A stretch of 63,871 bases of DNA, filler included. It is 13 parts of 13 records of this genome, joined end to end, with 100 filler letters (N's around TTAATTAATTAA, not from the genome) between each part and the next. Parts side by side here need not be neighbours in the genome. Positions count along the whole stretch, not along the records: positions 29,548 to 37,221 come from SRR15195285_4117; 12 more parts are not named here. The stretch is one strand, 5' to 3'. Positions 10,007 through 40,900 of this stretch are shown piece after piece (positions within the stretch are counted from its first letter, which is position 1; each line of letters opens with the position of its first letter). Both the position numbers and the translations under genes were made by a program. The notes beneath the pieces were generated by a model. The model had not been told where the DNA came from, made no database searches, and saw only the letters and a program-made list of their open reading frames with translations.

Positions 10007-10360
10007 TATATGTGGGTACACAGCGCTGACGGTGGCTGAGATACGTTGACTGGTCGAGTCGTCAGGCCCTGCTGGGCTCGCACTGAGCCGCTAGCGGACG
10101 CCCAGTGAGCGCCCGAGCTCCGCTGCAACTCCGCTCCGTCGCGGTCGATGGTCCGAGGCTCCGTCGTCGGTCGTCCGCCGGCGCGGGTCCCTCCTCCATC
10201 CATATGGGTCCCTCTCGCCTCTCGCTCGCGAGCGTGCGCCAAACGAGTCGATCAGACTGCNNNNNNNNNNNNNNNNNNNNNNNNNNNNNNNNNNNNNNNN
10301 NNNNTTAATTAATTAANNNNNNNNNNNNNNNNNNNNNNNNNNNNNNNNNNNNNNNNNNNN

Positions 10361-13300: not shown

Positions 13301-15560
13301 CGTGCTCTTCCATATCCTTAGAAGTGTTGGCAAACGCCAAAGGCTGGCAGCCATGAGCAGAGCCATCGCACCACAAGGGATATCCAGTAGCATCCAAAAG
13401 AAGTAGCGCACGGTGAGAGCCGTGCGTGGCCAACGATCGTACAGGATCTCTCGTTCGTTGACGTCTTTAACGAGCCCGGGCATGCGCCACAGACAGAGCA
13501 GCGCCATGACTGGGAAGGGCAGATCTAGCGCCAGCAGTACAAGCTGTTGGTAAACGAGAACGCGCCACTCGACTTGCTCGTCGCCAACGCTATCGGCAAC
13601 GGCAAGGGTCGGTCTGACAGCGTGCAGTCCTTCGCCAAAGCGCACCAGTGTCAGATTGACCAATGTGGCATTCACTTCTCTGTTATCAAACGGCACGACG
13701 ACGGTGTCAAGGGAAGTGTTGTGACCCCTGTCCTTGCTGTCTATAGGTCCTTGTCCTTGCAACATAATGGTGGAGCGGAGCATCTCAAGATGAATACGGT
13801 GCACCATGCCAGGCTTCAACAGGATAATGGCATCAGGCGGGGCGACTTTCAGCAGATCGTCTAGTGTCGGCATCCCGTGTGGCCACTCTCCTGGCACGCA
13901 GTACTCAGGACGAGATATAGAGGCCACGCGCTGAACCACTAGCTCCACAATCTCTTCGGGCAACTCGGCGCACCAGCTGTTGGCGGCAAGCCTTGGGTGC
14001 AACATTTTGGAGACAATCAGCCGGCGGTCGACTTGAGCCAGATTTACCGTCGGTATCGGTGTGCCGTCGGGGTACGCTGACGACAGGTACGTTTGCCCAC
14101 GGGCCCAAGCACCTGAGTACATGTCGTGGGCTCTCGTGGGTGCGTGCGCGAGAGTGCCAGCGTCAGGATTACGCAAAGCCTTCTGGAGCATTGCGAACCC
14201 ATCGCCCTCTTCGCGTGGTCTCGCGCGCCCATGTTCCCACCAGCATCTCAGTTCTTTGTAGGTAATTTTTGCTCGCACAGCCGTTACTATTAGCAGTAGC
14301 AGAGCTGGGATCGCCGGCAGATCCAGAGCCCACTGGTAGAATGAGGTCAGAACTACCCGGTATCGCGTACCGCGTTTAAGCTCCCAATCCTGTAAAGAAA
14401 AGCTGCTTTCGGCTTGCCGACGTAGCATTGGCAGCCTCCAGCATGTCAGCGCGATCACACACGCAGTTACAAGAATAGGCAGTTCCAGCAGGATGTCGCA
14501 CGGGACCATAAAGAAGTGGTAGAGTAGGACCTTCAGATAGCGGCACTGGCGGCGTTCGCTGGTGGTTCCTCGGCTATCGTAACTTGAGCCAACGTCAAAT
14601 AGTAGCGAGCGACGCAAAGCGTCATGACAGCTGCAGCGTGTGTCAAGCAATTTGACGCAAAGGCAGCAGGAGCAGCAGCAAAGGCATGATAGAAAAGTCA
14701 CTAGTGCGCCAAATGCAAACGGACGCGCCGAAACGGGCGTCTCGTCATCCTCCGTGACAGTGTCGTGGCTGGGTACTCCACTGCCTGAGCCATAATAGTA
14801 CCCGTACTCATAGGATGGATTGGTGCCTTCTTCTTGAATGGGATGGGAGTACCCGACCACCACCACCAGTGCTGCCGCCAAAAACCAGCTACCGAGCATG
14901 AACGCAAAGAAACCAGATTCAAGCCCATTTTTCATAGCACGCAGAGCCGATCCGCTAGGAGGGGCCGGTTTGGCAAGGTTACGCAGCCGCCGCACGTCCG
15001 CAAACGCGAGCGGAAGCCTCCAAATGAATGGAGCCAGCATCGCGCCCAGAACAATCAGCCGCAAGTCGAGCACCACCTTCAGAGCACGCTTCATAACATA
15101 CCAATTCCATCGACCATTTAGAAGTGGCCAGCCTACACCACCATGTTTGCCTTTGACGCCTCTCACGCTGAGGACACACCCCATACGCGACCAATGTTTG
15201 CCTTCCCGACCAGGTGCGTTCAGCTGTCCGGAGACCTTTTTGGCCGTCTTAGCAAGGCGATGCCACGGAGGCAACAGTAGGATCAACACTGCAGGTAGCG
15301 TGAAAGCGTCCAGGATGCAGAGCACAAGATGCTTGAAGACAATCGCCTGCCAACCTCCAGGCATTGCGAGCATCCGCCAGACAGCTCCACCGGCGTTTGG
15401 AGCAGCACGGCGTCCGTTGTTATCAGCCGTAAGGGCTTGGCGGTGTGCCACAAGAAGTTCCTTGAAGTCCAACCATAGCGCACATGCCCGATACATCGTA
15501 CAGGTCAACACGAGGCCCAGCGCAACCGTCGGGAAGTCCACAAGCACCACTAGCACGGCC
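10361..15560 (-). CDS. Large (>1700 aa) multi-pass membrane protein of unknown function with repeated D-x-P ... W-R-L-P helical-hairpin units; partial at both ends
   Basis: Uninterrupted ORF across the whole contig with many hydrophobic segments. Recurring motifs WRLPLA, WRLPML, WRMPGL, WRLPTL, WRLPFL, mostly preceded by DLP/DIP. Confidence 0.8.
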
Positions 15561-20624: not shown

Positions 20625-23600
20625 TCATTCGCCTCCAGCCTTGGCGATTTCCTTTGCCGCCTCCTCGTCGTCTTCGCCCTTGCTCTTCCCTCGGAAGATC
20701 ACCAGCATTCCCCCTTGCCCTCCAATAATCACCGACTGTACAGTGGCGATGAAGTTGGAGCTCTGCGTGAATGCGGACGCGGCAAACACTAGGAACACGA
20801 CGAGCGCCACGATGTTGACCACCAGCACAAATACGGCCCTCACCACGTTCTTGTCAGTCAGACCCAAGCGCTCCGCTGTCTTCTCAACCTGGAAGGTGAG
20901 CAGCGCGTCCCAGCCGTCGATCCACTCGCTCTCAGTAAGCAGCTGGTCGTGCGGGTGCATGTCGCAGTGTGCAAACATCTGGTCGCGCTCGAGCTTAGTG
21001 GCTGCCCAGCCCAAAGAGTTGAAGATGCGGTTGAACTCGTGCCTGCTGAGCGTGGGTTGCGACTTGTGCTCCACTCTCTCTGCAGCAAAACGGGCAAAGA
21101 TGTCGGACGGCTCCACCTCGGAGACCTCTGTATCGCTGATTGTGAACTGTTCGCCTCCATCCTTGCCGTGAAGGAAGCTTGAATGGCCGCCCTCGTCGCC
21201 GTTCTGCCGGCGCTCCTGCTCCAGTTGCTCTCGCCGATCGAAGAGCAAGAACTGCCGCTTCATCTGCTTCTCAGTGGCATCGCGCAGCCTCTGCTTCAGC
21301 TTGGTGGACTTCTCCTGAATTCCTCTCGCCACGGCTCTCGCGGACGCCCACGTCGTCACGAGTGCAGCTCCGTACGGCATGACCGCAGCAGGTTTGATCA
21401 CCGAAGCGACGATCAGCCATTCGCAGCTGAGGATGAAGAAGAAGAGGCTGACGACGACTATGGACGCCAGGGCCCCGAAGAAAAAGAATTGGACCAACAG
21501 TTGGACGAGCTTAATCACGAGCAGCAGCTTCGCGTTGGCGAACTCAACGGCTGCCTCCGCGGCGTCCTCCAGCCTGCCCTCTTTTTCATTGTCGTCGAAG
21601 GTGCCTCTCGTGCGGTCGCTGTCTAAGGAAGCACAGCACATGCGCAGCCATGCCGCAGTGAAGAAGGCCACACCAATGCCCAGCAGCAGAGCTACCTCAG
21701 GAACAGCGTCCTCGCTGGAGGCACGAACGTCATCGACCCATGCGGACTGTTCTTCGATCAGAGCTCCGATTGGCGTCCAGCTCAGCCAGTCAAGCCTAGT
21801 CAAGGGGGCAAAGTGGGCGTCGAACGCCCACGTGGAACCCATATACACGGCCTGAAGGGATGTGCCAATTTCAAACCTATTGGCAGCAAACGATCGGCGT
21901 CAGACCACGTGGTGATGAGATGGCTGGGCAGACCGTTGCTGTACTCACAGTAGGAAGAGAATGCCAAACACGATGACGCCCTGGGCTGATACTAGGGCAA
22001 CTTGAATCACCCACCACACCCAGCGCACATCCATCTCACTGGACACAGCCTCGAAACCTTGCGCTCGCAGATCACTGAGGAGGTACAATCCATGCAGAGT
22101 CCTGATTTGCTCTCGCTTGACCTGCACGCCCATCCTTGCAACCACTTCAGACAGAGTTGCTGGTGGGCACAGGACGCCATCGACGGTTGTGTAGTGCCCA
22201 GCTACGCTGACGCTGTCGCGAGAGCCGATTATCGCTGTCTGGCTGTCTTCGGCCAGCCAAGCCGTGAGCGATTTCAGCCCGTCGCGGTTCTGATCGTTGC
22301 TCCGCCAAACAATCTGATCGTCGTCATGGGTAACCTCGCAGTGCCGGGCGAAAAACACCTGGAGGATATCGGCATCGGACGATTCGTTCTGCAGGAGCTT
22401 CGCGTGCTTCGAGTCGGGGTCGGGTGACTCATCCGTGTCCAACCATCGGACACCTGTCAGGACAGTCTCTGGCGTCGAGGGGCTTCTGATAGTGACATCC
22501 GGACACTGCTCGTGGAGATGCTCACGAACCTGGTGGAAATCGTCGACAATGGTGTAGTCCTGGCGGAAGCAGAAGTTCTGATATTCTTTGAAGAATCTGT
22601 TCCACTCCAACGGCTCAGGCTCATCGGTGTCGCTAGGGTTGACCAAGGCTGTGCGCGTGAGCCTCGAGCTGAGACGAGACACCAGCCCGCCCGATTGCCC
22701 CCGTCGTTTGCGGGCTTTCAGCTGGTCCAACCCCTGCGCAGTGGCGCAATGTTGGGTGACGAAGCTCTTGACAGAGTTGCCCAGCATCCGCTTGATCGGA
22801 ATCTCGATGTAAAAATGCATCAGCTCAGTGACGGTATCGTCTGTAGAGAGGATCTTATTCAGCACCGTCTCGGCCCACTTCTTCCCTCCACCGGTCAGCG
22901 CATCGATGTGCTGCCTCAGCATTTTGGTGCGCCGTGCCTTCTTCGTCGAGCTTTTGGGAAGGCTCCCTTTCCTGTGACTCGCCACATCCACCGCGATGTT
23001 TGCCAGCATATCTTGGACCTGGCTGCGCTTCCGCTGGTGCTGCACCAAGGTGCGGGTGTACTTCAGAGTCATCCAGCTGATGGCAATGGTCCAAATCACG
23101 GTGATGATAATGCTGATCACCCATGCCCGCCTCAAAAAGCCGGACGAACTGCTGAACCACGAGGGACAGCCCAGATCACTCGAGTTATCGGGGTGGAAAT
23201 GGTCGAAGCATCGCTGCACCCGGATGCTGTCGTCATCGCCCCCAGGCACAGGCGAGAACGTCGCCACCCGTGGCGCCCAGGCCGTACTCCCCGGCTCGTA
23301 GTGGATCAAGACACCTCGCATCACCAGCTGCTTGTTCGGCGTCAGGGCTTTGCTGAGCAGCGCGAAGATCTCGATCAGCTCCTCGTCGCTGAGCCGCGCG
23401 TTGTCAGGCGTGATCGAGTAGTCGGCCCAGTCGGAGCGGCTCCCGCCGACGCAGTCGCCATCGTACGTCTCGATCCGCTCCTGGCGGATGGCTGGGGACA
23501 GAGCCCCGCCGGAGATCATGAACAGACGCGCCGGTTCCAGGTCCACGTACACCGGATTAGTCGTGAAGACCCAGCGGGATGAGCCGTGCTTTTGCGTGAC

Positions 23601-25058
23601 GACTTCCATCGAAAGGTACAGCTCCTCAGTCTTGTCCAGCCCGCCGAATTCGTCCCGGATGGAGAGCAAAGTAGTCGCCGACGCCTGCAGCAATCGCAGG
23701 CCGGGCTGGCCCCACGATAGCGAATCGAGCCGCGGGTGCGACGTGTTCGGCCAGCTGAGCACCCGCCGCTCATCTCCCACCTCCACGAGAACAGAGCCCG
23801 TGTCGGCCGTCATCGACAGTGAGTGAGACGAAGCGCTGCCCGCGTCCGGAGTCACCGACACGCGCCGCGTGCAGCCGGAGACCAGCGTGGTCAGGTTCTG
23901 TTCGTAGATCCGGTCAGCGAAGTCGGAGAACTTGCAGTAGCTGCGCCTCGAGCCGTCATCCGCGTCAAATAGCAGCGACTGCAGGCCACCGGTCGACGAT
24001 TTGAGAGGGCACTGTCCGCCCAAACATATCGGCAGCTTCTCAAGCCCCTCCTTGAACTCGTCGGCCGTGACCTTCGTGTTCCAGTCGCCATCGTACTGCT
24101 TTTGCAGCTTCTTGCGCCACTTGGACTGCGAAATGTCGCAGCGGCTCCAAGGGAGCTCGATGGTGTCAGCGAACGGCTCCACGTCCAGCGCGCGCACGCA
24201 GACCTGCTCCTGGTTCGAGCGGTAGTCCAGCGTGTAGGAGCGGTCAGGCAAGCTGTGGTCGTAGAAGGCGACGGATCCGCTCTTGGTGCGCAGCGAAAAC
24301 GACGGGGCGTCCGTGTCGACCACCGTAATGGTGCCTTCAGAGACGGAGACCTTCAGCTTGCTGTTGAAGGTCGCACTGTCGACGATCATCGAGCGCACGC
24401 TACCACTGACCTGCAGCTCCTTGACCACCGTTCCGGGTGCGACGCTCAGCTTGCCGCCGCCGCCCATCTTGAGCTTCAGCAGGTCCAGCCCCTCCCCCGC
24501 CGCGTTGCTCGTCGTCGAGATGGTCAGCTCGCACGCTCCGCCGCAGCGCACCAGGCCGCCCGCGTGATCATCACAATTCTCGTTGGCGACCTGCAAGTAC
24601 TGCAGGGCGCCGCTCCCGTCCAGCCCGACAATCGTCGAGTCCCGGGTGGGCTCCGGCACCTTCACGCCGCGGAGCATCTTGCCCGCGATGGAGGCCGGCT
24701 CCCCCGCCGCCGCCGGGCAAATGTTGACGTCGCAGCCGCTGACGTCCAGGGCGAGCGGCACCGTCAGCTCCAGCGCCCACTTGTTCTCGCAACCGAGAAA
24801 GGAGTGGCAGCGCAGGTAGACCTCAACTACGAAAACGTAGACAGCGAGGAAGGCGAACGGGAAGAGCAGCCAGCAGCACGTGCGGCAGATCGCACGGCGG
24901 CGCCAGTGCTTCTTCCGATCGTCGGCCGGGCTCGGCGGCGGCTGCTCCGCCTGCTGGCTCGGCAGCGCGGCGGCTGCGGCGCTGCTACTCGGCGGCACGA
25001 TCGGCACCTGGCCCGGGATCGGCACCTGGCCCGGGATCTCCGCCGCCGTGGCGGACAT
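20625..25058 (-). CDS. ~1453-aa multi-pass membrane protein with beta-rich (adhesin-like) ectodomain and EF-hand motifs; exons 25058-21949, 21876-20625
   Basis: A 72-nt GT-AG intron (21948-21877, CTGAC branch) joins the 1039-aa and 407-aa ORFs in frame. EF-hand-like motifs DGDWNTKVTADE and DMHPHDQLLTESE. Several TM helices. Confidence 0.75.
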
Positions 25059-25391
25059 CGCCACCTACCTGAGCGCGAGAGGGGTGCGCGCGCGCGCGGG
25101 TCGCGGCCGTTAACGCGTCGTTGTTTCATAGTTTGTGCAGGTCAGTCTTAGTCTCGGCAGTGCATGGTCACCTGACGTGCAGGACGGTTCCGGTCTGCAA
25201 TTTCTATCTACATGTACCGGTACAGTACTGTATAGTACAGGGTATCGCGTGGGATAAGAACCCGGGATGGAGAATGGGAATCGAGACGTTGNNNNNNNNN
25301 NNNNNNNNNNNNNNNNNNNNNNNNNNNNNNNNNNNTTAATTAATTAANNNNNNNNNNNNNNNNNNNNNNNNNNNNNNNNNNNNNNNNNNNN

Positions 25392-28300
25392 GGGCGCCGG
25401 GAAGGGCGCCGGGAAGGGCGCGGGCAAGGGCGCGGGTAAGGGGGCCTCGGGCGGTGGGGATGTGGACCTCACGCCGGGTGGGACCCCGTACCTGGAGCAG
25501 TCGCTGGCCGACATTATTAACGCGCGAGTCGGCTGGCGTAAGTAGATCCTCTGTCCCTTCCAGAGAGGCTTGGCGCGCTGCTGAAGGCCTGGCGGGTTAG
25601 CGCTCCTTTCTGGCAAGCTCCTTGAAAAGCTTCCTCGCAGGGGCGCGGGGGGAGGGGGACGTAGAGACCGAAGCAGCCCCGCCTCTGTGGTGCAGGTAGC
25701 GGGACAGCCAAGTGCACCCAGAGCCTTGTCTCAGGCTCGCGTGGTGGAGCGGTCTCTCTCGCTTGCAACACGGAGGATGTCTTATCTTTCATACCAAAGG
25801 TAGCGGGGGTGTTTTGTTGATCTCGAAGTGCCCGCCTGGCCTCACTCAGTAGCGAGCTTTAGTGGGGTTGAAAGGACGAGGCTAACTGCGCCTGCTGTGG
25901 TTCGGCCGCAGTCGCGGTGTTCTTCGTGGGCCTGCTGTTCACAATGATCATCATGGAGAGCTTCGAAGAGATCCTCGCGCAGAACGTCGCGCTGAGCTTC
26001 TTCGTGCCGCTCATTGTCGGACATTCTGGCAATACGGGCTCGCAGTCCGTGTCCACCGTCATTCGCGCGCTCGCTCTAGCTGAGGCGAAGCTCACCGACT
26101 CCATTCACATCATGCAGAAGGAGTTCTTCGCCGGCGGCACGTGAGTCCTACACCGCGTGTGCTTGCCGCCGTGGACGAGAGCTCCCTACTGTCTAACTTG
26201 AAGCGCATTATCACAGCATCGGCCTGGTTCTAGCCGCATTCTCGTACCCGCTCGGAGTCCACGTCTCCGGAATCCCGCTGCGCGTCATGTTTTCCGTGGC
26301 AGTCTCGCTGCCCTGCTGCAGCTGCGTGGCAAACCTGATCGGCGCGGGACTGCCGCTCATCTGTGAGAAGTTCCAGGTCGATCCAGCTGTCATCGCCGCT
26401 CCCTGCATGACCACACTCGTCGACTGCGTTGGCATTCTGACGTACCTCAAAATCTCCGGCATCATCATCGGCACAAACGAGGAGGAGGAGGGGGAGGGGG
26501 AGGGTGGCGAGGGCGAGGGCGAAGGCGAGGCCGGCTGCGAGTGCAGGGTTAATACCCTTTGGCGTGGTGTGGACGGATCTGAGTGCCAAAAAGAGCCGCC
26601 GGAGGGTTGGGCTCCAACCCCAGCATTTTGCCAGGAGAAGAACGATGAAGGAGAGACGGCTGCCGATGCATGCTGTCTCGTCGACGAGTGCTGGAGGATC
26701 ACGGGCGGATGTGCGGAGAACAGTGGTGAGGAGCTCAGCGACGAGAACCTTGCGCTTCTTGCACAGCACGAGGACTGTGACAAAAAAGATTTGTGTCATA
26801 GCCTGGAGGGCCATGAGGACTGGGCGATCGATCCGGAGACTTGCCAGCTTCATCCGCACGCGGAGCGCGACGGCGACGAAACGATCAACATCTTCATGAT
26901 GATCGTGCTGCTAGGAGCGCTCGTGTTCTGTGGAATATCCGGCTACCAGCAGTGGAAGGATATGCAAGAGGAGGACGAAACCGATCCACACGCTGAGGAT
27001 GACCACCTGGCCACGAACAGCAGCCGCGGAAAGCCTGTGGAGGAGTTGGCGGAACCTGTCAAGTACCTCGTGCTGAACACCGCGACGGTGCGCCGCGGCC
27101 CGGACGCTGATTCCGAGAAGATGGGTGAGTTGAAGTCCAAGCAGATGATCGAATGCGTCGAGAAGACCACCAACGCCGCCGGCCTCGACGTGCTGCGGCT
27201 GAGGAAGAAGGGCGACGGCAGCCCGGTCGACGGGGGCTGGGTGAAGACTGTGACTTCGAAAGGGAAGCAGCTCCTCCACCAGCTCCCAGGCGCACAGTTT
27301 CCCGGCGACCCTTCACCGCACATCATCCCGAAGCATCAGATCGAGGTCGCCGTCCAGGAGGCGCTCACAAACCTCTCTCTCCTGCCAAACGTGGACATCG
27401 ACGCGGCGAAGGTGGTGCAACAGCTGGCCAACTCCATGCAAGTGCAGGTAATCCTGCAGACCGACGCCCACAAGCATCAGCGCGTTCTGAAGTCGATACC
27501 GCTGCTCTCAAACATGACCCCCGTGGAGCTGAGACCAATCATCGAGTCGGTCGAGGTGCTCAACTTCACTGCAGGGCAAGACGTAATCGCCGAGGATGCG
27601 ACTGATCAGGACATGTACGTCGTCATGGAAGGGACGGCTGTCTGTACCAAGCTGGGCGCCAACGATGGAGGGCCGGTCGCGCAATACGCCACGGGCGATT
27701 TTTTCGGTGAGAGGGCCGCGCTGGCGAATGAGCCTCGCGCTGCGACGGTCACCGCAGACTCGGACCTCACCGTGTTGAAACTCGACCGCTCCGCCTACAA
27801 CCTTGTCCTCGACTCAGCCAATGCCAACGTCGAAGTGGTGCACTCGCTGCAGAAACAGTACGAACAGGCTTGCGGCACGCCGCAGCCGCGCGTGCGCCGC
27901 CAGCAAGTCAACTACGCACGACGCGCCGGTTCCTACGGTGCTCACGGGGGACCCTCCGTATTAGGTGCAATGCGAGCGGCGCGCCGAGGACCGGCCACCG
28001 GGCGACGGGGATCGGACATGTCGGACAGTTCGGACACTCCGGGACCGTCCCTGCGCTTGTCTGCGTCGGACCTTAGCAGCACGAACATGGAATACGCGCA
28101 GCAGGCGGTAAACGCTGGGGCTAACCCTGGCTCGCCGAGGCGATACAGCGACCCCGAGGTCAGTGCCAGCACCAGCCTGCACGCCATCCGGTAGCCCATC
28201 TCGAGATCGGTTGCATTTAGACAGGAATGACTGAGTTTCAGCTCCAGTTGTGTTGCTTTAGAATCTCCCAGGTTACTGCAACAGCTGTTAGCATTGAACG

Positions 28301-29447: not shown

Positions 29448-30023
29448 NNNNNNNNNNNNNNNNNNNNNNNNNNNNNNNNNNNNNNNNNNNNTTAATTAAT
29501 TAANNNNNNNNNNNNNNNNNNNNNNNNNNNNNNNNNNNNNNNNNNNNGCCCCACCAATAAAACCAATGCACATGTCTCTCTTTCTACCTCTTCTTCTTCT
29601 TCTAGGGCCGTGGACTATGGGTCTCCTTCTACGTTTTGGGGGTATGGGAGAAGGTTCCAGCCCCGCGCCACCGACCTTGTGGGTTTGCTGTCGGGCTGAC
29701 TCATCCTCTTCCGCGTCCCATAGGGCCTGTATGCCCTATGTGCGGATTCAGGTGAGGTCTAAACACGGTTGCAGGTGTACGCTTCGTGACGACTTCTAAC
29801 TTAGAAGTCGTTTTTAACTTAGAAGTCGTCGCAAAGCGAGGGGTGGAAGAGAATGTGGTCCTCATCGAAGGACACAATTTTTCAATGCGGACTGCATTAT
29901 AGTGGGCAGCTGTCTAGTATGCCACGGGGGATCGCACCCACACACGATATGTCGTTTTGTGGCTCAACTCAGAATGCTATTATCAATTCGACTATTACTC
30001 TATGTTCTCATGTGGTGCGTGCG

Positions 30024-33000
30024 TCATCTTTCATCGGTGTCTACACCAGCACCGACTCCGTCCGCTCTATCGGTGACTGCTTGGTGTTGAGTTTTTGCTT
30101 GTCCCTGCGTCGCTTCTGCGCCCACTTCGGCTTCCATTTTCGCTACAGCTATCTCAAGTGCGCCCGTCTGCAATCCTCCCAAGATTGCAGCACGCGTTTT
30201 CTTTCTCGTGACCGCGACAGCCTCTTCGTTGTCACCTTCCTCCGCCTGCTTTTGCCGCTGCTCCTCAGCATATTCTTGGGTAGCATCGGCACCCTGGTGT
30301 ACGATGTCCATCTGCTCGTCAGTTAGATCGTATTCCTTCAGTGCATCTTCGAACCTCTTTTTCTCGGCTTCAAGTTTCGCCTTGGCCTTTTCCGTTACAT
30401 TGGAATTCAACTTCGCTGCTTCGATTTTCCCTTGGGTATCCGCCACCATCTCACTCAGATTGACCTGCATCGTGGCGAGGCTGCTGTCGTCCCTGCCACG
30501 ATTTCGAGCTTTTCGTGCCATCTGGTCCTCAAGGCTCAGAGCAGCTTCTCCGCAGTTCAGGTTTACTAGGGCCTGTAGCAGATCATCGTACTTGACTACC
30601 GAATCTTCGTCGATGTAGCGGTGGCCGTGAAAGTCGAGCTCTTCTTTCAGACTTTGAAGCCGCATCCGAGCACGCAAGGTCGTCAAACCATACAGAATCG
30701 ACGTGTAGGATACGGTTCCTGTGCCGTTTGTCAAACGAAACGCTTCCCACTCCGTCACATTTTCCCACGTGAACTGCAATTCTGTTATGCTGTCGCACCG
30801 CAAGGACTCAGCAGACATCGCTTCTTCTGGCAAGCAATCGAATACCGACGGCGTCTCAAGTAAGGCTTGCCAGTGCTCAGAAAACCCAACCCCGACTCTT
30901 TCCGTTTCGCTGTTGATTGGAGAGTTGTTCTGGAAGTACAAATCGTGCACGAATGGTTTAACGTCGCTGCAGGTTTCGTCCGAGCGTCCTTTGGCAACCT
31001 TCCAAGCTACGAACTCTTCCCGAGTCCATTCACTAACTGGGGGCGGCGCAAGCGCGTTTTCTATGACAAGCCCGTCGTCGGTGTGACCGTCTAGCTTGCC
31101 AATGGTAGCAAGAACTGTCCATAGCTTTTGATAAGGGAGCAACTCGGGCGTCTGGTCCGTGGTCTGGGCTCGGAATGCATACTTGAACTCCTCGAAGTCC
31201 GCCTCGCTAATATCCAGCTCCTGCTCGCGCATCGAAGCCGCAAAGTTGTCCAGAATGACCGCGACAAATAGATTCAGCAGGATGTAGTTAGAGAAGAAGA
31301 AGAAACTCGCAAAGTACATGAATGCGAGCCCGTAGGTTGTGTTGTCTGGGTCTTTGCAGTCATACCCACATGGCTCACCTCCCACAGCATACATCACAAA
31401 CTTCCAATCTTGCCCTGCTGCACATTGAAAGAGGAGGCCCATCGCATCCTTGAAATTTCTGAATGAACTGTGATGAGTGTACTGTCTGTTTAAACCCATC
31501 AGCATCTGACCGGCTTCGCCCCCCGCAATTCCAGCGAACTTGCTTGAGCCATCTTCAATAGCCCACGCACAGTGTGGGTTGCTCATATCTGTCGGCTTCA
31601 TTGCACATTCGATGTCCTGTATAGGCGCGTTGCCGAACAGCATCATTCCCATGATAGCGTACAGCGCATATAGCAGCAGCACGAGGACACTGATGTTAAT
31701 GGCAGGTGGGATACTCAGTATCAGCGTTTGAAACAACGAGCGAATTCCCTTTGCACTCTTGAGCACTAGAATGATCCGCAATGCGCGCATTGCTCGAATT
31801 GCCTGCGCGCCACTGACTTCAAAGATTACTGCTGCCCATGACAAGCTGATGACCACGACGTCAAACTTGCTCCACGGATCACTCAAGTACTTGACCGGAA
31901 AGTAAGCAATCAGTTTGAAGAACATCTCGTAGGTGAAAAAGTGTAGACAGATGGTGTTGTACAGATCCTGCATGTCTATCCATGCTTGTGTCTGACCTTC
32001 GTACTCACACATCATTATCGCGACGTTGAACAAGATAAAACCGTTGCTGAGCTTGTTCCAAAAACTAGACTCTACCAAATTGTAAAACCATTTGCGGATA
32101 GCGTTGTTCGGGGCTTGGTCACGTAACGATGGCCTGTGGAGCTTCTGAAACTTCGCTAGGTCAAGCAGCATCTGCTGTTCTTCTGTAAGCAATGCGCTGC
32201 CATCGCTATTGCCGATGAAATCAATGAGCACACCAATGAAAAGGTTTGTGATGAAGAACGCCATGATCATAATGTACATCAGGAAGTACAAACATTTGCC
32301 AACCCATGCTCCACTGAACGGGATAGGCTGCATGCCAATCCCAGTGTTGTCCAATCCAATTTCCATAATGTCGGTCCATCCAGCGAGGGTGGACGCCGTA
32401 AAAAGAGACATCATTGCATTCCCAGTCGTATCAAAATTGTAAGGTCGATTGTCCCAGTAACATTGTGACACAGCGTTCGGAAAGCTCGGATCAATTCCGT
32501 ACATGACCGAATCACCAGACTCGCCGATACAATCCTGCTCCCTCAAAACCACTCGAGGACGGCAGCTCCCAGTAATAGAATCTGGGTTGAAGAAAGGGCT
32601 CGTGCTGTTGGTCTCCACGCACTGCGCTCCGGTTGCAATGTCGACCCAGCCTCCATCATTTAGGAAATGAGCATTTGCCGGCGACAGTCCGTCAGGGTAT
32701 GTATACGAGCAGTTGCAGGTGTACATCCCGCCAGCAAAAAGAGAGACGCCAAGGATGGCAAACATCAGTAAGCCCAGCCCCGAAAGCGCCAGCACTCCGA
32801 GATTGACGGCCAGGCTGTTCACGACAGCACTGATGATGACACGCATGCCTTCGTTGCGGTTGATTATTCTCAAGGGGCGTAAGCAGCGCAGCAAACGAAC
32901 GAATCCAGCGTTCCCTCCAAGATAGTTGACCACAGACCCAACAATCACAACGAAATCCAGTTTGTTCCATGGGTTTTTCAAATAGCTTTTAGGAGTAAAC

Positions 33001-36000
33001 ATAAACCCGTGTCCGATGGTCTTCGCAGCAAACTCCACTAGGAATATCAGGAAAAGGACATCGTTTATCCTATCAAAGGTTTCCTGAGTTTCGGCCGGAA
33101 GTGAGTTCGGCGGACCTTCTGCAGCCAGCAAACCTGTGCCAATCAATATTGCAACGAGTATGATGCTGTCGAAAATGTCATTTGCTGCTAATGCAGCCAT
33201 ACCCTTCCGGAAGTTGTGATTGGATTCGAACAGAAACAACGACTTGTCATCGTTGTACCATTTCGCCCCTGGATTGATTGTACCAAAGTTCACAGGAACC
33301 CATATCAGCCGCATGGCCACATTCGCAATGCCGGTGCGATCGAGCGAAGCCAAGTGGGAGCGAATGGCGTGGTCGAAATCTGCGGTGCCAGGCTGCACAC
33401 CCTCTAGTATGTCCCGAAACACATCTTTTTGGCACTGGAACTGACAATCCCAGCTCACAATGAGATCTACCAATGCAGCCACGGCCACCTCATCTTTTGT
33501 CAGCGGGTTGTCTGCTAGCTTGACCGCTCCGAGCAGATTTTTGTCCATCTGCATGTCGCTGTAGATGCCAGCTCGATCCAGCTCATTACTTTCGACATCG
33601 ATGCCGCATACGGTGCCTGGTTTCTTACCCTCACCACCACACAACCAAACCAACCGGTGCACGAACGAAATCTTTGGCTTCTTCGCAGCCTCCGCTTTTT
33701 TGTAATTCTCGTCTTTCATCTTCTCCACTTGTAGCTCCACCTTCTCTTTCTCAGCAATCTCAAAATTCTCTAGAATGACTGCAATGAAGAGACTTAAGAG
33801 AATGAAATTGCAGAATGCAAAGTTGAGGAAGAACAGCAGCGGAGTGATCCAGCCGGGAGCCATTTCCATGTGATCGTGCATCTGGTTGACCCAGTCATCC
33901 CCAGTCATGACCTGAAACGCGAGTAAGAATGCACGTGGGAAGTCTTCAAAGTTTCGACGGGGAATCAAACCCAAGCGGATGAATTGCTGTACGTCATAGC
34001 CGTAGCGATACTCCGCAATTTCGTCAGGGTTGTCGCTAGACATCGCGTAATGCCGAATGTCGTACACACCGTCGCCAGAAAGTCTACCCCACAGAGATCC
34101 ACTGTTGTCTCCATAACCCCATTCGGCATTTTCCGGGTGGTAACCGCCGCCGAGCAAGTGCATTCCACCGATGGAAAAGATCAGCACGGCAAAGAATATG
34201 AAGAGGATGAGATTTGCCAGCGACGCTCCACTACCGAACACCGTGATCAGTACACGCTTGAGGTTCTTGTTCTTGTATAAGATGCGCATGACCCGCAGTA
34301 CGCGGAACAGACGAAACATCCGGAAGAGCTTGAATACGGCGAAACCGCCTCCCTCATCGCCTTCGGCCATCGCTTCACCTAGCATATCTAGACTAGACGT
34401 CACGACGATGAAGAAGTCCAGCTTGTTGAAGTTCACTCGGATGTACTCTCGGAAACCCATCCCTAAAATCTTCATAACGCACTCCATGGTGAACACAAAG
34501 TTGAAGACGTAGTTCAAGTGCTTGTTCATCTCAATGAAGCTGTCAGATTGACACAGTTCTTCGACTTGCATCTGCTTGCACGCTGACCGGTTGTGGTGGT
34601 CCATCGCCAACAAGATGGTGTTGAGGAAGATGAACGACAAGATAAGGTTGTCGAACCACTTCTGATTGATGATCCCTTCCCGAGAAGCCAGATCCCTTCT
34701 ATTGGGCCCAGCATCTTCGCCATATAGTGATTCGTGCTCTTCAAAAGGGCCTCTGCCACCTAGTGCAGCGACAAAGTAGAAAGGCTTGTTCCAACGTTCC
34801 GCCCGATCATCCCTGATCTGTTTCGCAGCGTCGCGTCTCTCTATCGCACCCATGGCCTGCCCCTCATCTCCGAGTCCCTCATCTGGAGCATTAGCTGTTC
34901 TGACATCCATAAACACGGTCGTGATCACGGCGACAAACATGTTCACCGTAATGTAGCTCAAGAAGAACACGTTGAATGTGCCGAAGGACCACGATATCAT
35001 AGAGCCAAGCCCGTTGTTCGCGTCGGCTAGGCGATGCGCAGTTTCCCACCAATATAAGTTGGCCATGTTGATGAATAGGGCAATCCATGCATCGCCGATG
35101 CTATCATAGTTCTGGAACCCTTTCCCAGGGTTGAGTGCTGGTTGGCACGTCTGCGTACGGTTGTACGGTCCTGGAATATCATACAGTGGACAGTCGGTGT
35201 CCACGGTACAGTAAGTAATCCACATACCAATCCCTATAGGGTACTCATATCCTGCATCAGACGGGTCAACATCCAGCGGTGGCTGTGGCCATGGGTGGCT
35301 GGCACCGTCCGAGTACGTCCTGTTGCCATCCCATGCAGCCGTGCCCGCCACCATCGAGCCATTCACACTCACACTTGCTTCCATTAGTGGGAATTTGTCT
35401 GGGTTTAACAGCGCTTGCAGATCGAACGTTGCATATTCGCAGCGGTTCAATCCAAGGCCTCGGAACATTTGGATCCCGATGATACCCATCACAACAAACA
35501 GAAATGCAAGAAATGCCATAACGTTCAACGAGTACGGCAGCGCTGCGCCAATCGTGCCCAAAATCTGCCTAATGCCATTAATATTCTTGAACGCCTTCAA
35601 CACGCGCAGGATTCTAAGCGCCCGCAAAGTTTTCATCTCGACCCCGAGCTCCAACCCGGTCACTTCCACAAGCACATTCAGCCACGACGATAGAACCACG
35701 AAAAAGTCGAGCTTGTTCCAGTCGTCGTTCAAATATTTGGGCAGTCGGTCATCGATGATCGGATTTCGGTCCCAAAGGCCCATCGCGACGATGCGTATGT
35801 ACATCTCCACCGTGAAACCAATCTGTACAACATTCACTCGTGCATCAGCACGCACCCGACAAGCTAAGTGGTGTGTGATGCCACAGCGTCGTGATCGCAC
35901 CGTAAGAACCGTGTCGGCGGCGACCATCATTAGCAGCGTTTCCTCTGCAAGAATGTTAGCAGGGCTTTCAATAGCAAGAAGAACAGTGTTAAACAAGATG

Positions 36001-36441
36001 GCGCAGAGCACTGTCATGTCCATCCACGTCGACTTGCACGCGTTCTGGCACCAAAACTGCATGGCGAGTGCTGCAGTTTAGCAATGCACGCCATATCTAG
36101 CGACTAGGTGTGACGAAAAGCGCTGGCTGCACACACTTCGCGCGTGCGAAAAGCGCTGGCTGCACACACTTTGCGCGTGCCAGACGCACCAAAATTGCCT
36201 TGTCAATTTCGCCCGTGTACAGGGCGTCCCCCGCTGCCAGTTGACCCCACGCATCTGTGCTTCCCGGCACGTTCTCATCCTCGAAGGACGACAATTTGAC
36301 GTTCTCGTCCTCGAAGGACGATTGCTTCGCCTGTTCGTTCTCGAAGGCTGCTGGCGACTTTGGTAAAGAATTCCCGTCGTCGGAGAGATCGCCAAGTTTC
36401 AACCCAATTGGGTTGCTCACCTGCTGCTCCCCGGTTGCCAT
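30024..36441 (-). CDS. Four-domain (4x6TM) voltage-gated cation channel, Cav/Nav/NALCN superfamily (~2068 aa); exons 36441-36190, 36056-35901, 35822-30024
   Basis: Four S4 segments (LRALRILRVLK, FRMFRLFRVLR, LLRCLRPLR, IRAMRALR), WNKLDF motifs and S6 N(L/M)F(I/V)AVI motifs. An in-frame 78-nt intron lies at 35900-35823. Confidence 0.93.
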
Positions 36442-37321
36442 GTCTTGCTCCCGGCTACACAGACGCTCCCCAGTCGCGCTGCCGAGACCAGTTCACGGGC
36501 TGCCTCGAGATGAGCAGTCTGATGCTTTGCCGTGCCTCAACTCGCCAGCTGCTTGCTGGCCATGGTCGCTGTGCACAGTGTGCCCGTCGACAAGTGGCTA
36601 GCGCGGCTTGAGCGCTGTTGCCCTTGCTGGGCGCGCCAGACCTGGGCGCAGCCCGAGTGGGGCAAGGCTCAGCGGCCTACCGCCTATACAGTAATGCCTG
36701 CACACTCATGCCACAGTCGCCGAAGTGGAAGCGAGTGGCACGCAGGAACCAGCATGGCGAGAGCTGTTGATTTTCAGGGCACACGACAGTGGGAATTCTA
36801 CCTTCCTTTGGTTTGAGTGTACACTACAATATGAATCGTACTAGTACTGTACAGTACGTAACATTGTTGTACACCATACTAGTACAGCGGGTACTGTACT
36901 GCTAGCATTTCTTCTTGTAAACCGTGTACCTGGTAGCATTACTATGAATAGTATGGTGTACGTGAGTAGACTAGGGTACTGTACTGCCGGTACTACTATT
37001 GATGGTATACCATTATAGTATAGACCGTACCCAAGCGGAAGTACGATTGATGGTCATCTGTGTACAGCTGTAGCCTGTACGCTCTGCTAGATCTAGTACC
37101 ACTATACAGTACATGTAGTACCAGTTGCTGGTACAGCTGTAGCCTGTACGGTACTGTGCATCATCACGATAGTAGGATCCCTGCTGTACTCCGCGTACTA
37201 GCTATTGATAATACACCCCTTNNNNNNNNNNNNNNNNNNNNNNNNNNNNNNNNNNNNNNNNNNNNTTAATTAATTAANNNNNNNNNNNNNNNNNNNNNNN
37301 NNNNNNNNNNNNNNNNNNNNN

Positions 37322-40300
37322 CGGTGTGCATGCGATCGGACTGTTCCCATTACGGACTGCGCCGAGTGCAATGGATTCGTGCCCCCCCCCCTCCGAGCTC
37401 TGTTCCCAAGGTTGCAGAATCTCAGATCGGTGCGGACGCGACCGGACTGTTCCCATTGCAGACTGCGCCGAGTGCAATGGATTCGTGGCGCTGCCCTCAC
37501 GAGGTGATTCCACGTCCTGGACAAAAGGAATGTTTTCGTCTCCGACGTGACATGACTGAGATTGCAGCGTGCCACCAGCCTGATTATTTTCATCTGCGTA
37601 CAATTGGCCTTCGGTAGATATCGCAATTCCCACCACTACCCCCAGCGATGCCACAACGGCAACAAGGTCAAACACAGCTATCAGCCAGAGTAAACCAGTA
37701 AGCACGGTCAAGCACACGCATAAATCGACCCGTAGCGTAGCCTGCCTGATGCTTTGAGAATCCACTCGTCGTAGTTGGTAACGCCGACTGCACATTAGGC
37801 AAGTCTTCGGCACGAAAGTCCAAAACAGCTTCTTGTATGGGCTCTCTACATGAAATACCTCGGCTTTCCATAAGTCTTCTTGTACCCGAATCGCCCACTT
37901 TACCCATCTTGTAAAAGGAGTCAAGAATGCCCGAGTGAATATGTCGATATCTTCGTCCTCAACACATATGGATGACGCATACAGCTGAAACCTTTGGTCG
38001 CCAAGCTTGATCACAGGATCTTGTTTCTTGTGGCGCATCGAAGTCAACGCTGCTCTGAATGATCGAAACGAGCCAAACGGTACTCGCATGTCCAAATTGA
38101 CGACAATGTGTGCAGATATAGCTCCGGAATTCCGGTCGAGCGTGAACGACGTCATCTGTGGCGCTCTCTGTGCGCACGTATTGGTCATCGGGAATGCATC
38201 CAGAACGGCCATCGATCCATCTGCACATTGTGTCTTTAATGACTCTACCATCACCTTTGTCCACGTAGCTTCGTCAGGCACTCGATTGGGTCTAGGATCG
38301 CTGCCGTTTGCCACATCTCCACTAGTGGTTGGGTCGCTGAATCCATCTTCGGTCTCGCTGAATCGAGGCCGATGGCATGGATCGACCTGCAGACAAGCAC
38401 GTAGCACGTTCCATGCTCGCATATAATCATGTACACACGCGCCTTTCAACAGTGAAGACTCTTCAGCAACAAGATTTGCTCGATGAAGCGCCAAATGCTC
38501 GCGTATCCAAAAGTCTTGGGTGAAACCTAGCTTTGTAGCGGCGTTAATCTGAGCCGTTGTCATATACTTTGCACCGCGATATAGCGTCCACGCACCGACA
38601 GTGCGCACTACACAAATATCGGTATGGTCTTCATCAGATGGACTTGCGCGACTTGTGTCCTCGTCTGTCAGCACATCGTGGTCCCAGACCAGGTCGTATA
38701 TTGGACCTACCGACTGCGCTACATGTTTTGTCTTCTCTGTATCCGTCAGATGGGATCCCATTGCCGCTTCAGCTCTTCTCCTTGCGGATCGCTCTTCTTC
38801 TAGACGATGGATGCGGCACCACTCCTCCCACCACTCCCTTTTCTTCCAGCCCAACTCTTCACATGCGTCAGGCTCTTTTGCATACAAATCCTCTGCGAAC
38901 GGCTTTGGCGCCATACCTTCAACCTCAGGCTCTGGCGCCATACCTTCAACCTCAGGTTCTGGCGCCATACCGTCAGGCTTAGCAGACTGGTCAGGCAACA
39001 GGAAATACAGCAAACCCTCCCAGCGGTCCGCGCCACCTTCATCAGACTGCAGATCCTGGAAGATCGCGGACTTCGGTGGATTTTCAGATTGAATCCGTCG
39101 CTCGCTCGGGGCAAATACTGCACGAACGCCAGGAGGAAAACATAACTGCAAGTCAACAAAATACTTCGCGAGCTGCTTGACAACGGCCTTTTGCACGACT
39201 GCAAAGTCGCCCACACGATGTTGCAGAAGTACTTCAGCTTCTCCAGCTCCTTGATCTGGAACACCGATTGTTTCGCCTTTGCTCTGTGGACTGAACAGCA
39301 ACCGCAATCCAATGATTCCAAGCGACCAAATGTCGCGCTTAACATGCGTTTTCTGGGGTCCATCAAACCTCTGCACGTGCAGCAGCTGCTTGTGATCAGC
39401 ATGTTCCAGTCGCTCTTCCATAATCTTGTACCCATCGAAGGTACCGGTCCCACGAGCATCTTTCAAGCTCTCGAACCAGTTCGCTGCCAAGTCAACACTG
39501 CCTTTGATGTGGCTGCTAAGGTGAGCTACCAGTGACAAGAAGACTTCAGGTGCGAGGGTTCCAGATCTGGTTGCAAGCAACCACGGGGCATGCTTCCGGA
39601 GTCCATCATTCGACTCTCCGGCCGTATCAAATCCAACGATATTCAGTGTACACCCTGCAACCTTTTCACCCCCATGGCAGGTAGGTGGGCATACGGTCTG
39701 AGAACACTTAGAACAGACATCCACTTTGTCCAGCGTGACGACCTCAGGCCGGAGTGAGTTGTGGACGTGTTCTTTCAAGTGCAGGTCCCGCAGCTTACAT
39801 GCCAGAATTCCAATATAAGACATGGCGATCCCAGGCCAGAGTTCGCGATTCTTCATCCATATCAGCTCCCCGAAGCAGCTTCCAGTAGCGTCGCGCGCGA
39901 TAATAGACTCCAGCGTCTCCAGAAAGTTATGCCTTGAACTGAGACGCAACGTCCCGCTAGGCTCTCCATTGGCAACTGAGTAGTATCCATCTGTCTTGTC
40001 CGGTTCTATCTGTTCACCAGCATCCTTGTTTGCGGATCTTTCAATGGGGTTCTTCCACTCGCTCGGAAGTGGCCGTACCTCTAAGACGTAGTGATCTGTA
40101 CCGTCGGAACAAATGTAGCGGTCACTGGCAAATTTGGATCTTTCCTCGATCCGTTCTAGATCCTCCCAAAAAAGCTTCTGCTCTGTTTCTGTTTTAGAGA
40201 GCTCTTTTACGGCGTTTCTGAGCGTCCTGAACTGGCTGGGTTCACGGGGCTTGTACAGAGGTGCTTTGACGAAGAATCTCGCAGGCGAGATGACCTTGCT

Positions 40301-40900
40301 ATCACGTTGAACACTGTCAAACACATCACTGGTCCGTACGTTCTTACCGCCGACTTTTTTGAGGTCGTGACGCTTCACGGCCCCAATCACCGAGATTCCG
40401 GCACCGATTACACTGGACGCTAAGTCGGACGGGAGATCTCGTTGCTGGTCATGTGACAAACGGTGAGTGTGTTGCCATGTTGCACTTTCCACGGGCCGCA
40501 GATCACAGTCAATTCCAATGCCGTTGGTCGGCGGCCAGTTATCATATCCTGCAGTGCCGTGTGTTGTTTCTACCCCCAGTGCAACATCTGCGAGTGCACT
40601 TCCTTCGACGCCTGCTTCCCTACTACGAGTGCAGCAACAATGAAGAGAACGCAAAAAAGCCTGAGGATCTTTGTTGCCGTCGTCCCAGGCCTGCGTGAGG
40701 ACAAAACCAAATCCAGGGAACCCAACGCAACCTGCAAATAGCCATATCCACGATGCTTTTCCCTCACAGGTGCCCTCTGATGTCAAGAAGCCGTTCGTGC
40801 ACATAACTGCTACAACGGCGGAACAAGCAGATATGAACAACATAAATGCACCGACGGTTCTCCGCTTAAACTGCATGAAAAAATAAGTAATAATCAAACA
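37322..40900 (-). CDS. Membrane-anchored protein-kinase-fold protein, probably a pseudokinase; partial at both ends
   Basis: Kinase subdomain remnants HNSLRPEV (for HRDLKPEN), GFD (for DFG), TLAPE, RDIWSLG and CLQVDPCHRP. TM helices near both ends. 16-aa repeat (TNPLHSAQSxMGTVRS x2) at the C-terminus. Confidence 0.7.

Follow-up and report, generated by a model that had tools for sequence, protein, structure and literature searches.

The window analysed here is a stretch of 63,871 nucleotides in which 13 parts of one genome are joined end to end with filler between them. The part at positions 29,548 to 37,221 (record SRR15195285_4117) carries, on the minus strand, a marine eukaryotic gene for a complete voltage-gated cation channel of four repeats. 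The pore ring of this channel consists of L336, D722, A1227 and Q1551, i.e. L/D/A/Q in place of four acidic residues. One intact frame of 2012 codons (30024-36062, minus strand) holds all four pore motifs, FINMANLYW starting at amino acid 330, FQVMTGDDW at 716, FTASTLAGW at 1221 and FQCAAGQDW at 1545, which cover the window from 35075 down to 31404. A sequence-only reading made earlier had given these motif letters correctly and had placed them, also correctly, at 31400-35080. It had further called the open reading frame (ORF) intact, which is true of the frame but not of the gene as a whole, since the frame includes an intron (35823-35900) and a further exon lies upstream (36190-36441). The whole gene extends from 30024 to 36441 on the minus strand, contains two short introns and yields a spliced product of 2068 amino acids from the coding exons 36441-36190, 36056-35901 and 35822-30027. 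Amino acid numbers given here refer to the raw 2012-codon frame, intron 2 included. The gene is composed as follows:

36190-36441, minus strand: exon 1, 84 amino acids of the cytoplasmic N-terminus, with the ATG at 36441
36057-36189, minus strand: intron 1, 133 nucleotides, GTGCGT...CAG, with a 33-nucleotide tandem duplication inside
35901-36056, minus strand: exon 2, 52 amino acids, S1 and the start of S2 of repeat I
35823-35900, minus strand: intron 2, 78 nucleotides, in frame, GTGCGA...TACAG, equal to amino acids 55-80 of the raw ORF
30024-35822, minus strand: exon 3, 1932 codons and the TGA stop at 30024-30026, covering the rest of repeat I, repeats II-IV and the C-terminal tail

Exon 1, the translation of which was verified, matches the orthologous locus L002 in a tblastn search (E 3e-13) as well as the N-terminus of the related protein P0009, and in L002 it also ends in IDKAIL. 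Removal of intron 1 creates the junction IDKAIL/FWCQNA and gives back the spacing of the homologues; at the same position L002 has a gap that ends in CAG before TTCTGG. The 26-residue insertion corresponding to intron 2 is missing in nine of nine relatives that cover the site, among the matches listed, and L002 has a frame-changing gap of 91 nucleotides there. Amino acids 55-80 are therefore an intron that is in frame by chance in this gene. No contig of the RNA-library runs spans either intron joint (one contig of run X14 enters intron 2 by 29 nucleotides), and cover by these libraries is nearly nil over 36037-36498. The duplicated 33-nucleotide unit of intron 1 lies at 36114-36180 with a 97% match between its two copies. 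Exon 1 contains two successive copies of the peptide SSFEDENV (36268-36330), and its alignment with L002 is gapped there, so the N-terminus evolves by short duplications. The upstream intergenic stretch 36800-37200 is rich in GTAC-containing words (gtactgtacagtac and similar). Rfam gave no match anywhere in the window.

The protein matches the Pfam family Ion_trans (PF00520) in four stretches (E 1.9e-178), besides a weak PKD_channel match. Its best solved relatives in a phmmer comparison with PDB chains are Cav3.2, Cav1.2 and Nav1.7 (E 1e-83 to 6e-91), and a fold search matched Cav3.3, Nav1.7 and Cav1.2 (E about 1e-16 to 3e-17). The hallmarks of a four-domain voltage-gated cation channel are all found, namely four Ion_trans repeats, charged S4 segments and pore loops of the P1-turn-P2 type with a Trp at position +2 from the ring residue. 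Beyond the pore, the other functional DETERMINANTS are the four charged S4 segments and, between repeats III and IV, a linker motif:

35568-35636, minus strand: S4 of repeat I (MKTLRALRILRVLKAFKNINGIR)
34266-34334, minus strand: S4 of repeat II, six basic residues at a spacing of three
32841-32903, minus strand: S4 of repeat III
31740-31802, minus strand: S4 of repeat IV
32172-32207, minus strand: III-IV linker motif SDGSALLTEEQQ, in which ALLT is a hydrophobic triplet followed by Thr at the site of the Nav fast-inactivation particle

The sequence-only reading was right that the four S4 segments are all basic: every one of them carries four or more basic residues spaced three apart, and this pattern is kept both in the clade of relatives with the same ring and in its sister clade with the ring L/D/A/K. 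Read directly from the sequence, S2 and S3 carry acidic and aromatic partners. The ALLT within SDGSALLTEEQQ is kept across the L/D/A/Q clade. A hydrophobic triplet followed by Thr has been described as a Nav-like inactivation gate and inferred for the ancestral channel (PMC5824947). As the motif is ancestral to the superfamily in that account, it is no marker of Nav membership. At E ≤ 0.01, Pfam gave no GPHH (PF16905), IQ (PF08763), CAC1F_C or Na_trans_assoc domain in the channel protein.

The four pore loops, with the ring residue of each, are located as follows:

35022-35099, minus strand: pore loop of repeat I, amino acids 322-347; P1 at 322-333, turn ANLY at 334-337, P2 from W338; ring residue L336, TTA at 35055-35057; outer Glu E340
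33861-33941, minus strand: pore loop of repeat II, amino acids 708-734; turn GDD at 721-723; ring residue D722, GAT at 33897-33899; D723 at +1
32352-32426, minus strand: pore loop of repeat III, amino acids 1213-1237; turn TLAG at 1225-1228; ring residue A1227, GCT at 32382-32384; D1231 at +4
31380-31454, minus strand: pore loop of repeat IV, amino acids 1537-1561; turn AGQD at 1549-1552; ring residue Q1551, CAA at 31410-31412; D1552 at +1 and K1554 at +3

We examined the register of the ring in four ways, using phmmer against PDB chains, the loop of repeat I alone, MAFFT multiple alignments (FFT-NS-2) and AlphaFold2 models. All four agree with the L/D/A/Q ring proposed from the sequence. In the phmmer alignments TGDDW and STLAGW pair with TGEDW and STFEGW in repeats II and III of Cav1.2, respectively, and NMANLYWW pairs with VITLEGWV in repeat I of Cav3.2; D722 and A1227 fall on the Glu residues of Cav1.2 repeats II and III, and L336 on the Glu of Cav3.2 repeat I. 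Taken alone, the repeat I loop finds its best match in repeat I of Nav1.4, with L336 on the Asp of DEKA, Y337 on Tyr, E340 on the outer-ring Glu and one extra Trp. The MAFFT alignment, which includes two Cav1 channels of vertebrates and one calcium channel of a crayfish, sets L/D/A/Q opposite E/E/E/E. In two AlphaFold2 half-channel models, which comprise amino acids 81-790 (mean predicted local distance difference test score, pLDDT, of 75.9) and 940-1640 (80.8), all four ring residues sit in a turn of three to four residues between P1 and P2 (block-mean pLDDT 82-94). P2 begins at the conserved Trp, the ring residue lies two positions before it, and this Trp is invariant or nearly so in all four pore loops. 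The sole ambiguity of register is the extra Trp in repeat I (YWW). A slip by one residue there would bring Tyr and not an acid into the ring. No shift of register yields a ring of acids, the outcome that the sequence-only reading had named as counting against its proposal.

The claim that the locus has a single acidic residue holds at ring position 0, but not for the surroundings of the filter, where five carboxylates are found in total: the ring Asp D722, an Asp at +1 in repeats II and IV, and a Glu or Asp at +4 in repeats I and III. The Lys at +3 of repeat IV (K1554) is conserved. A database copy of the same gene, P0002 (COSAG02_NODE_649...), differs at one of 1639 residues, and this difference, W1553C (codon 31404-31406), concerns the Trp of the repeat IV loop. 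Contigs of three other runs show Trp as in the window, so the Cys of P0002 is probably an amplification or assembly error.

Relatives were collected by a word-indexed search (514 sequences) and by an exhaustive HMMER search over 1.84 billion representatives (13,638 at E ≤ 0.001). Besides this gene, 25 complete proteins have the same L/D/A/Q ring, at identities that go down to about 45%. In a 202-sequence alignment the ring EEEE occupies 82 rows, LDAQ 26 (counting this gene and its database copy P0002), EDEE 12, DEEQ 10 and LDAK 6, while other rings have one to three rows each and some rows are partial. The loop signatures of the clade are LYWWE, TGDDWVNQ, STLAGWTD and GQDWKF. Clade loop motifs occur in 62 of all fetched proteins, with 30 of the Q form and 12 of the K form at repeat IV; the fragments P0267-P0269 were read by motif, and P0002 has the Gln yet misses the repeat IV pattern owing to W1553C. 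Exceptions at the ring are P0127, a fragment of 443 amino acids with Asn for Ala in repeat III, and P0037, a member of the K clade with Tyr for Asp in repeat II.

A FastTree phylogeny (LG model) was calculated from 162 complete sequences and 1147 columns, leaving out P0002 and rows missing any ring position. The LDAQ sequences are monophyletic (25 tips, support 1.0), LDAK and LYAK form a clade of 7 tips (support 1.0), and the two clades are joined with a support of 1.0. Their sister is a 14-tip clade of DEEQ, DDSM and DDAE sequences (support 0.999), and the L/D/A/Q, L/D/A/K and D/E/E/Q clades are all nested among EEEE tips. The ring is a fixed signature of a monophyletic clade that is sister to L/D/A/K, and both are derived from protist channels of the E/E/E/E type. 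Apart from P0037 and P0127, the only ring change across the whole group is the swap between Q and K that separates the two clades, and the CAA codon of this gene is one base away from AAA, the Lys of the sister clade. The Gln of repeat IV is common to the L/D/A/Q and D/E/E/Q relatives. The environmental D/E/E/Q clade (e.g. P0040, P0042, P0043) likewise has it within a GQDW turn, but keeps three ring carboxylates, and EF-hand domains are on record for these three proteins. Sequences with E/E/D/D (P0228, P0254, P0204) and the single D/E/E/A sequence, which is Nav2-like, fall outside the L/D/A/Q clade. Beside the D/E/E/Q clade, P0131, P0141 and P0048 have the rings D/D/A/E and D/D/S/M and the motif MTGDRW in repeat II. 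P0265 and P0266 of the L/D/A/K clade have about 3200 amino acids with EF-hand domains on record; they are genuine fusions or else products of gene models merged in metagenome contigs.

The four pore loops have a mean column conservation of 0.82-0.91 among L/D/A/Q clade members, compared to 0.61 for the channel core, 0.39 for the I-II linker, 0.27 for the II-III linker and 0.20 for the C-terminal tail. The ten most conserved windows of 20 residues include all four pore loops, S4 of repeats II-IV and the ends of S6. The ratio of nonsynonymous to synonymous substitution (dN/dS) against L002 (86% amino acid identity) is 0.055 over 526 codons, with a dS of 1.55 that is near saturation; for L004 and L006, of 8 metagenome loci found in all, synonymous sites are saturated for this purpose. 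Among the strain variants listed within the frame, 21 of 32 are synonymous and 11 nonsynonymous, with none in the pore loops. From the conservation of the pore loops and the dN/dS of 0.055, relaxed selection, which the sequence-only reading had named as a reason to doubt its own proposal, is excluded and a dead pore is unlikely; the purifying selection acting on the gene is strong.

The gene also occurs in other samples. At least half of its sampled words are present in ten DNA runs, which bear marine or seawater labels (rhizosphere in one case), and part of the gene is present in six RNA-library runs. Contigs of three RNA-library runs (X14, X15 and X17) cover stretches of the gene at an identity of at least 95%, and contigs from X14, X15 and X1 show the repeat IV loop without any difference. 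The relatives come from metagenomes and from records of single-cell assemblies (COSAG02, COSAG05, SAG31, SAG22 and SAG11), and the L/D/A/Q clade is known so far from environmental and single-cell assemblies only. The nearest feature clusters in the ESM Atlas are most frequent among Haptophyta, which is no more than a hint.

What could such a channel do? As the parts for voltage sensing and inactivation are all present and the pore is the most constrained region, we read the protein as conducting. Our preferred reading, to which we assign a probability of roughly 0.55, is a conducting and inactivating channel that would have lost the high-affinity Ca2+ site and would prefer Na+ or monovalent cations, or be weakly selective. 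Depolarisation would open the channel via the four charged S4 segments, and inactivation would probably proceed through the conserved ALLT of the III-IV linker. In pseudo-tetrameric channels repeats I and III face each other, as do repeats II and IV. The filter is thus expected to be asymmetric, with D722 (repeat II) opposite Q1551 (repeat IV) and the bulky L336 (repeat I) opposite the small A1227 (repeat III). Cations would be attracted by the Asp residues at +1 in repeats II and IV and, further out, by E340 and D1231. With three of the four ring carboxylates gone, the high-affinity Ca2+ site of the E/E/E/E type should be lost. In Cav channels the removal of ring glutamates reportedly abolishes high-affinity Ca2+ binding while monovalent conduction persists (Yang et al. 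1993; Ellinor et al. 1995), and Heinemann et al. 1992 reportedly dealt with the loss of ring carboxylates in Nav channels. A lysine in repeat II or III is associated with Na+ selectivity in animal channels (PMC6259924). Taken together, the mutagenesis of Cav channels and the association of ring lysines with Na+ favour the Na+-preferring, monovalent or weakly selective reading. In sea water the channel would then carry an inward current of Na+ or other monovalent cations, or a weakly selective one, and not a Ca2+-selective current. The L/D/A/K sister would, to judge from the lysine in the DEKA, DKEA and EEKE filters, be a more strictly Na+-selective version.

Several points weigh against this reading. 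Repeat II has Asp at both 0 and +1 and repeat IV has Asp at +1, and these three carboxylates could still bind Ca2+; moreover, animal Cav channels have their 'calcium beacon' in the +1 Asp of repeat II (PMC6259924). For a Leu in the ring we found no characterised precedent, and it might narrow or dehydrate the pore. The half-channel models came without coordinates, so the diagonal pairing follows from the general arrangement of domains. Finally, the gene is only putatively transcribed, as DNA may be present in the RNA libraries and none of their contigs contains a spliced joint.

The same carboxylates are the basis of an alternative that we consider unlikely but give real weight, in which the channel is mainly Ca2+-permeable. 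The Ca2+ site would be shifted to D722, D723 and D1552, aided by E340 and D1231, and the odd ring would alter affinity and not the physiological ion. Consistent with this, the TGDDWVN of repeat II, with Asp at 0 and +1 and Asn at +4, is invariant in the clade, and the clade is descended from EEEE channels. In the literature the +1 Asp of repeat II is universal in animal calcium channels (PMC6259924) and acidic n+1 residues are tied to Ca2+ selectivity (PMC5824947). However, there are just three carboxylates at 0 and +1, confined to two repeats, whereas repeats I and III have Leu/Tyr and Ala/Gly at these positions. The Lys at +3 of repeat IV is conserved, and the sister clade sets beside the very same Asp residues a ring Lys, which opposes Ca2+ binding in known filters (PMC6259924). 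We regard as improbable that the pore is plugged by the Leu and that the protein is a non-conducting voltage sensor coupling membrane potential to another protein. A hydrophobic ring residue, the loss of three carboxylates and fully charged S4 segments would fit such a role. Yet a vestigial pore should drift, while here the pore loops and S6 ends are the most conserved parts, equal to S4 or above. Moreover, none of the 25 complete L/D/A/Q relatives departs from the ring, the sole group-wide change is a directed swap of Q to K, and the inactivation-type motif is retained. Among the three possibilities raised by the sequence-only reading (non-selective, non-conducting or of new selectivity), the non-conducting one is therefore least favoured, given the conserved pore loops and the low dN/dS.

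There is equally little probability in a filter of truly new selectivity, i.e. one that selects K+, H+ or a large or organic cation. We found no characterised four-domain channel with L/D/A/Q, and the ring is absent from literature text searches; on the other hand, the net negative vestibule and the fold fit ordinary small cations. That the ring is an artefact of misaligned register, of sequencing error or of a gene decaying under relaxed selection is very hard to sustain. The extra Trp of repeat I allows a slip by one residue, and P0002 carries W1553C inside the repeat IV loop. But the slip gives Tyr, the turns of the AlphaFold2 models agree with the alignment, the repeat IV loop is matched exactly by contigs of three other runs, and the low dN/dS and the persistence of the ring to about 45% identity do not fit decay.

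Of the characterised families, channels of the Cav1/Cav2 type (E/E/E/E) belong to the best matches of this channel in sequence and fold and share the four repeats, the charged S4 segments, the P1-turn-P2 loops with Trp at +2 and the +1 Asp of repeat II. In contrast, they have four ring Glu residues where this channel has one Asp, the GPHH, IQ and CAC1F_C domains on record for the animal Cav1 matches are not reported here, and they occupy another part of the tree than the L/D/A/Q clade; Cav1.2 does not have the ALLT-type motif that is present in this channel. The E/E/D/D ring of Cav3 (T-type) channels differs from L/D/A/Q. Nav1 channels (D/E/K/A) resemble this channel in that their ring is asymmetric, includes a small residue and has few carboxylates, and also share the hydrophobic triplet with Thr in the III-IV linker. 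Repeat I of Nav1.4 has in common with the loop described here NPxxGxxxYD...ALF, the Tyr at +1 and the outer Glu. However, Nav1 has its lysine in repeat III, while the present ring has none and the sister clade has it in repeat IV; the Asp of Nav1 repeat I is Leu here, Na_trans_assoc is not reported, and the lineages are separate. NALCN and Cch1 (E/E/K/E, E/K/E/E, E/E/E/E) are also four-domain channels with a variable ring, but are far weaker sequence relatives (E about 3e-48) than Cav and Nav, and NALCN, with S4 segments poor in charge, does not respond to voltage (PMC5824947), whereas all four S4 segments are charged here.

The list of known rings in the sequence-only reading was incomplete, as many non-canonical rings of protist channels have been reported, among them D/D/K/D, A/G/K/E, S/S/K/E, D/K/T/D and rings bearing R or H (PMC5824947). 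Those channels likewise form lineage-specific clades from E/E/E/E ancestors and combine a charged S4 and a Nav-like inactivation motif with replaced ring residues. They differ from the present group in that the rings given in section 7 of PMC5824947 have no Leu, none is L/D/A/Q or L/D/A/K, and the lysines lie in repeat II or III. The strings LDAQ and LDAK are absent from the part of the PMC5824947 text and supplement that was searched. A literature text search, the coverage of which excluded Figure 3 of PMC5824947 and Verret et al. 2010, found no report of L/D/A/Q, L/D/A/K, a ring Leu or a repeat IV lysine. Non-canonical rings in protists are already an established pattern (PMC5824947, PMC6259924), of which this ring and its clade, known here from sequence, are probably a new case.

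Other ORFs of the window are as follows:

58163-60883, plus strand: ORF of 906 amino acids with Ion_trans, Ion_trans_2 and a cyclic-nucleotide-binding domain, a single-repeat CNG/HCN-like channel 22 kb off along the joined window
26287-28194, plus strand: ORF with the end of an MgtE divalent-cation transporter domain and a cyclic-nucleotide-binding domain; an upstream exon is probably missing from the ORF
376-2181, plus strand: ORF with TPR repeats and EF-hand motifs
46484-49306, minus strand: ORF with TPR repeats and EF-hand motifs

Pfam gave no match for the long ORFs 10313-15556, 21945-25064, 37274-40897 and 61499-63868.

The selectivity of four-domain channels has been explained almost entirely from animal rings (EEEE, EEDD, DEKA, DKEA and EEKE). 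Here, selection keeps a fixed ring with one carboxylate and a Leu over a diverse clade, while the sister clade differs mainly by the lysine of repeat IV. The two forms, expressed in parallel, would offer a natural experiment on the position of the lysine, on +1 aspartates replacing ring glutamates and on excitability in uncultured marine protists. The L/D/A/Q clade has no named member in the databases queried, which marks a gap in the catalogues of channels. We put forward as a tentative idea, more doubtful than the preferred reading itself, that a Na+-conducting four-domain channel was invented independently, outside animals, in the L/D/A/Q and L/D/A/K clades, where the selectivity-determining pair of Asp in repeat II and Gln or Lys in repeat IV would be rotated by one repeat compared to animal D/E/K/A and a hydrophobic Leu would be part of the ring. 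If this is true, the Q and K forms, as a naturally occurring pair, would illustrate how a single base change (CAA to AAA) gives rise to a lysine filter, and Na+-based action potentials in very small marine flagellates would be carried by L/D/A/Q and L/D/A/K channels.

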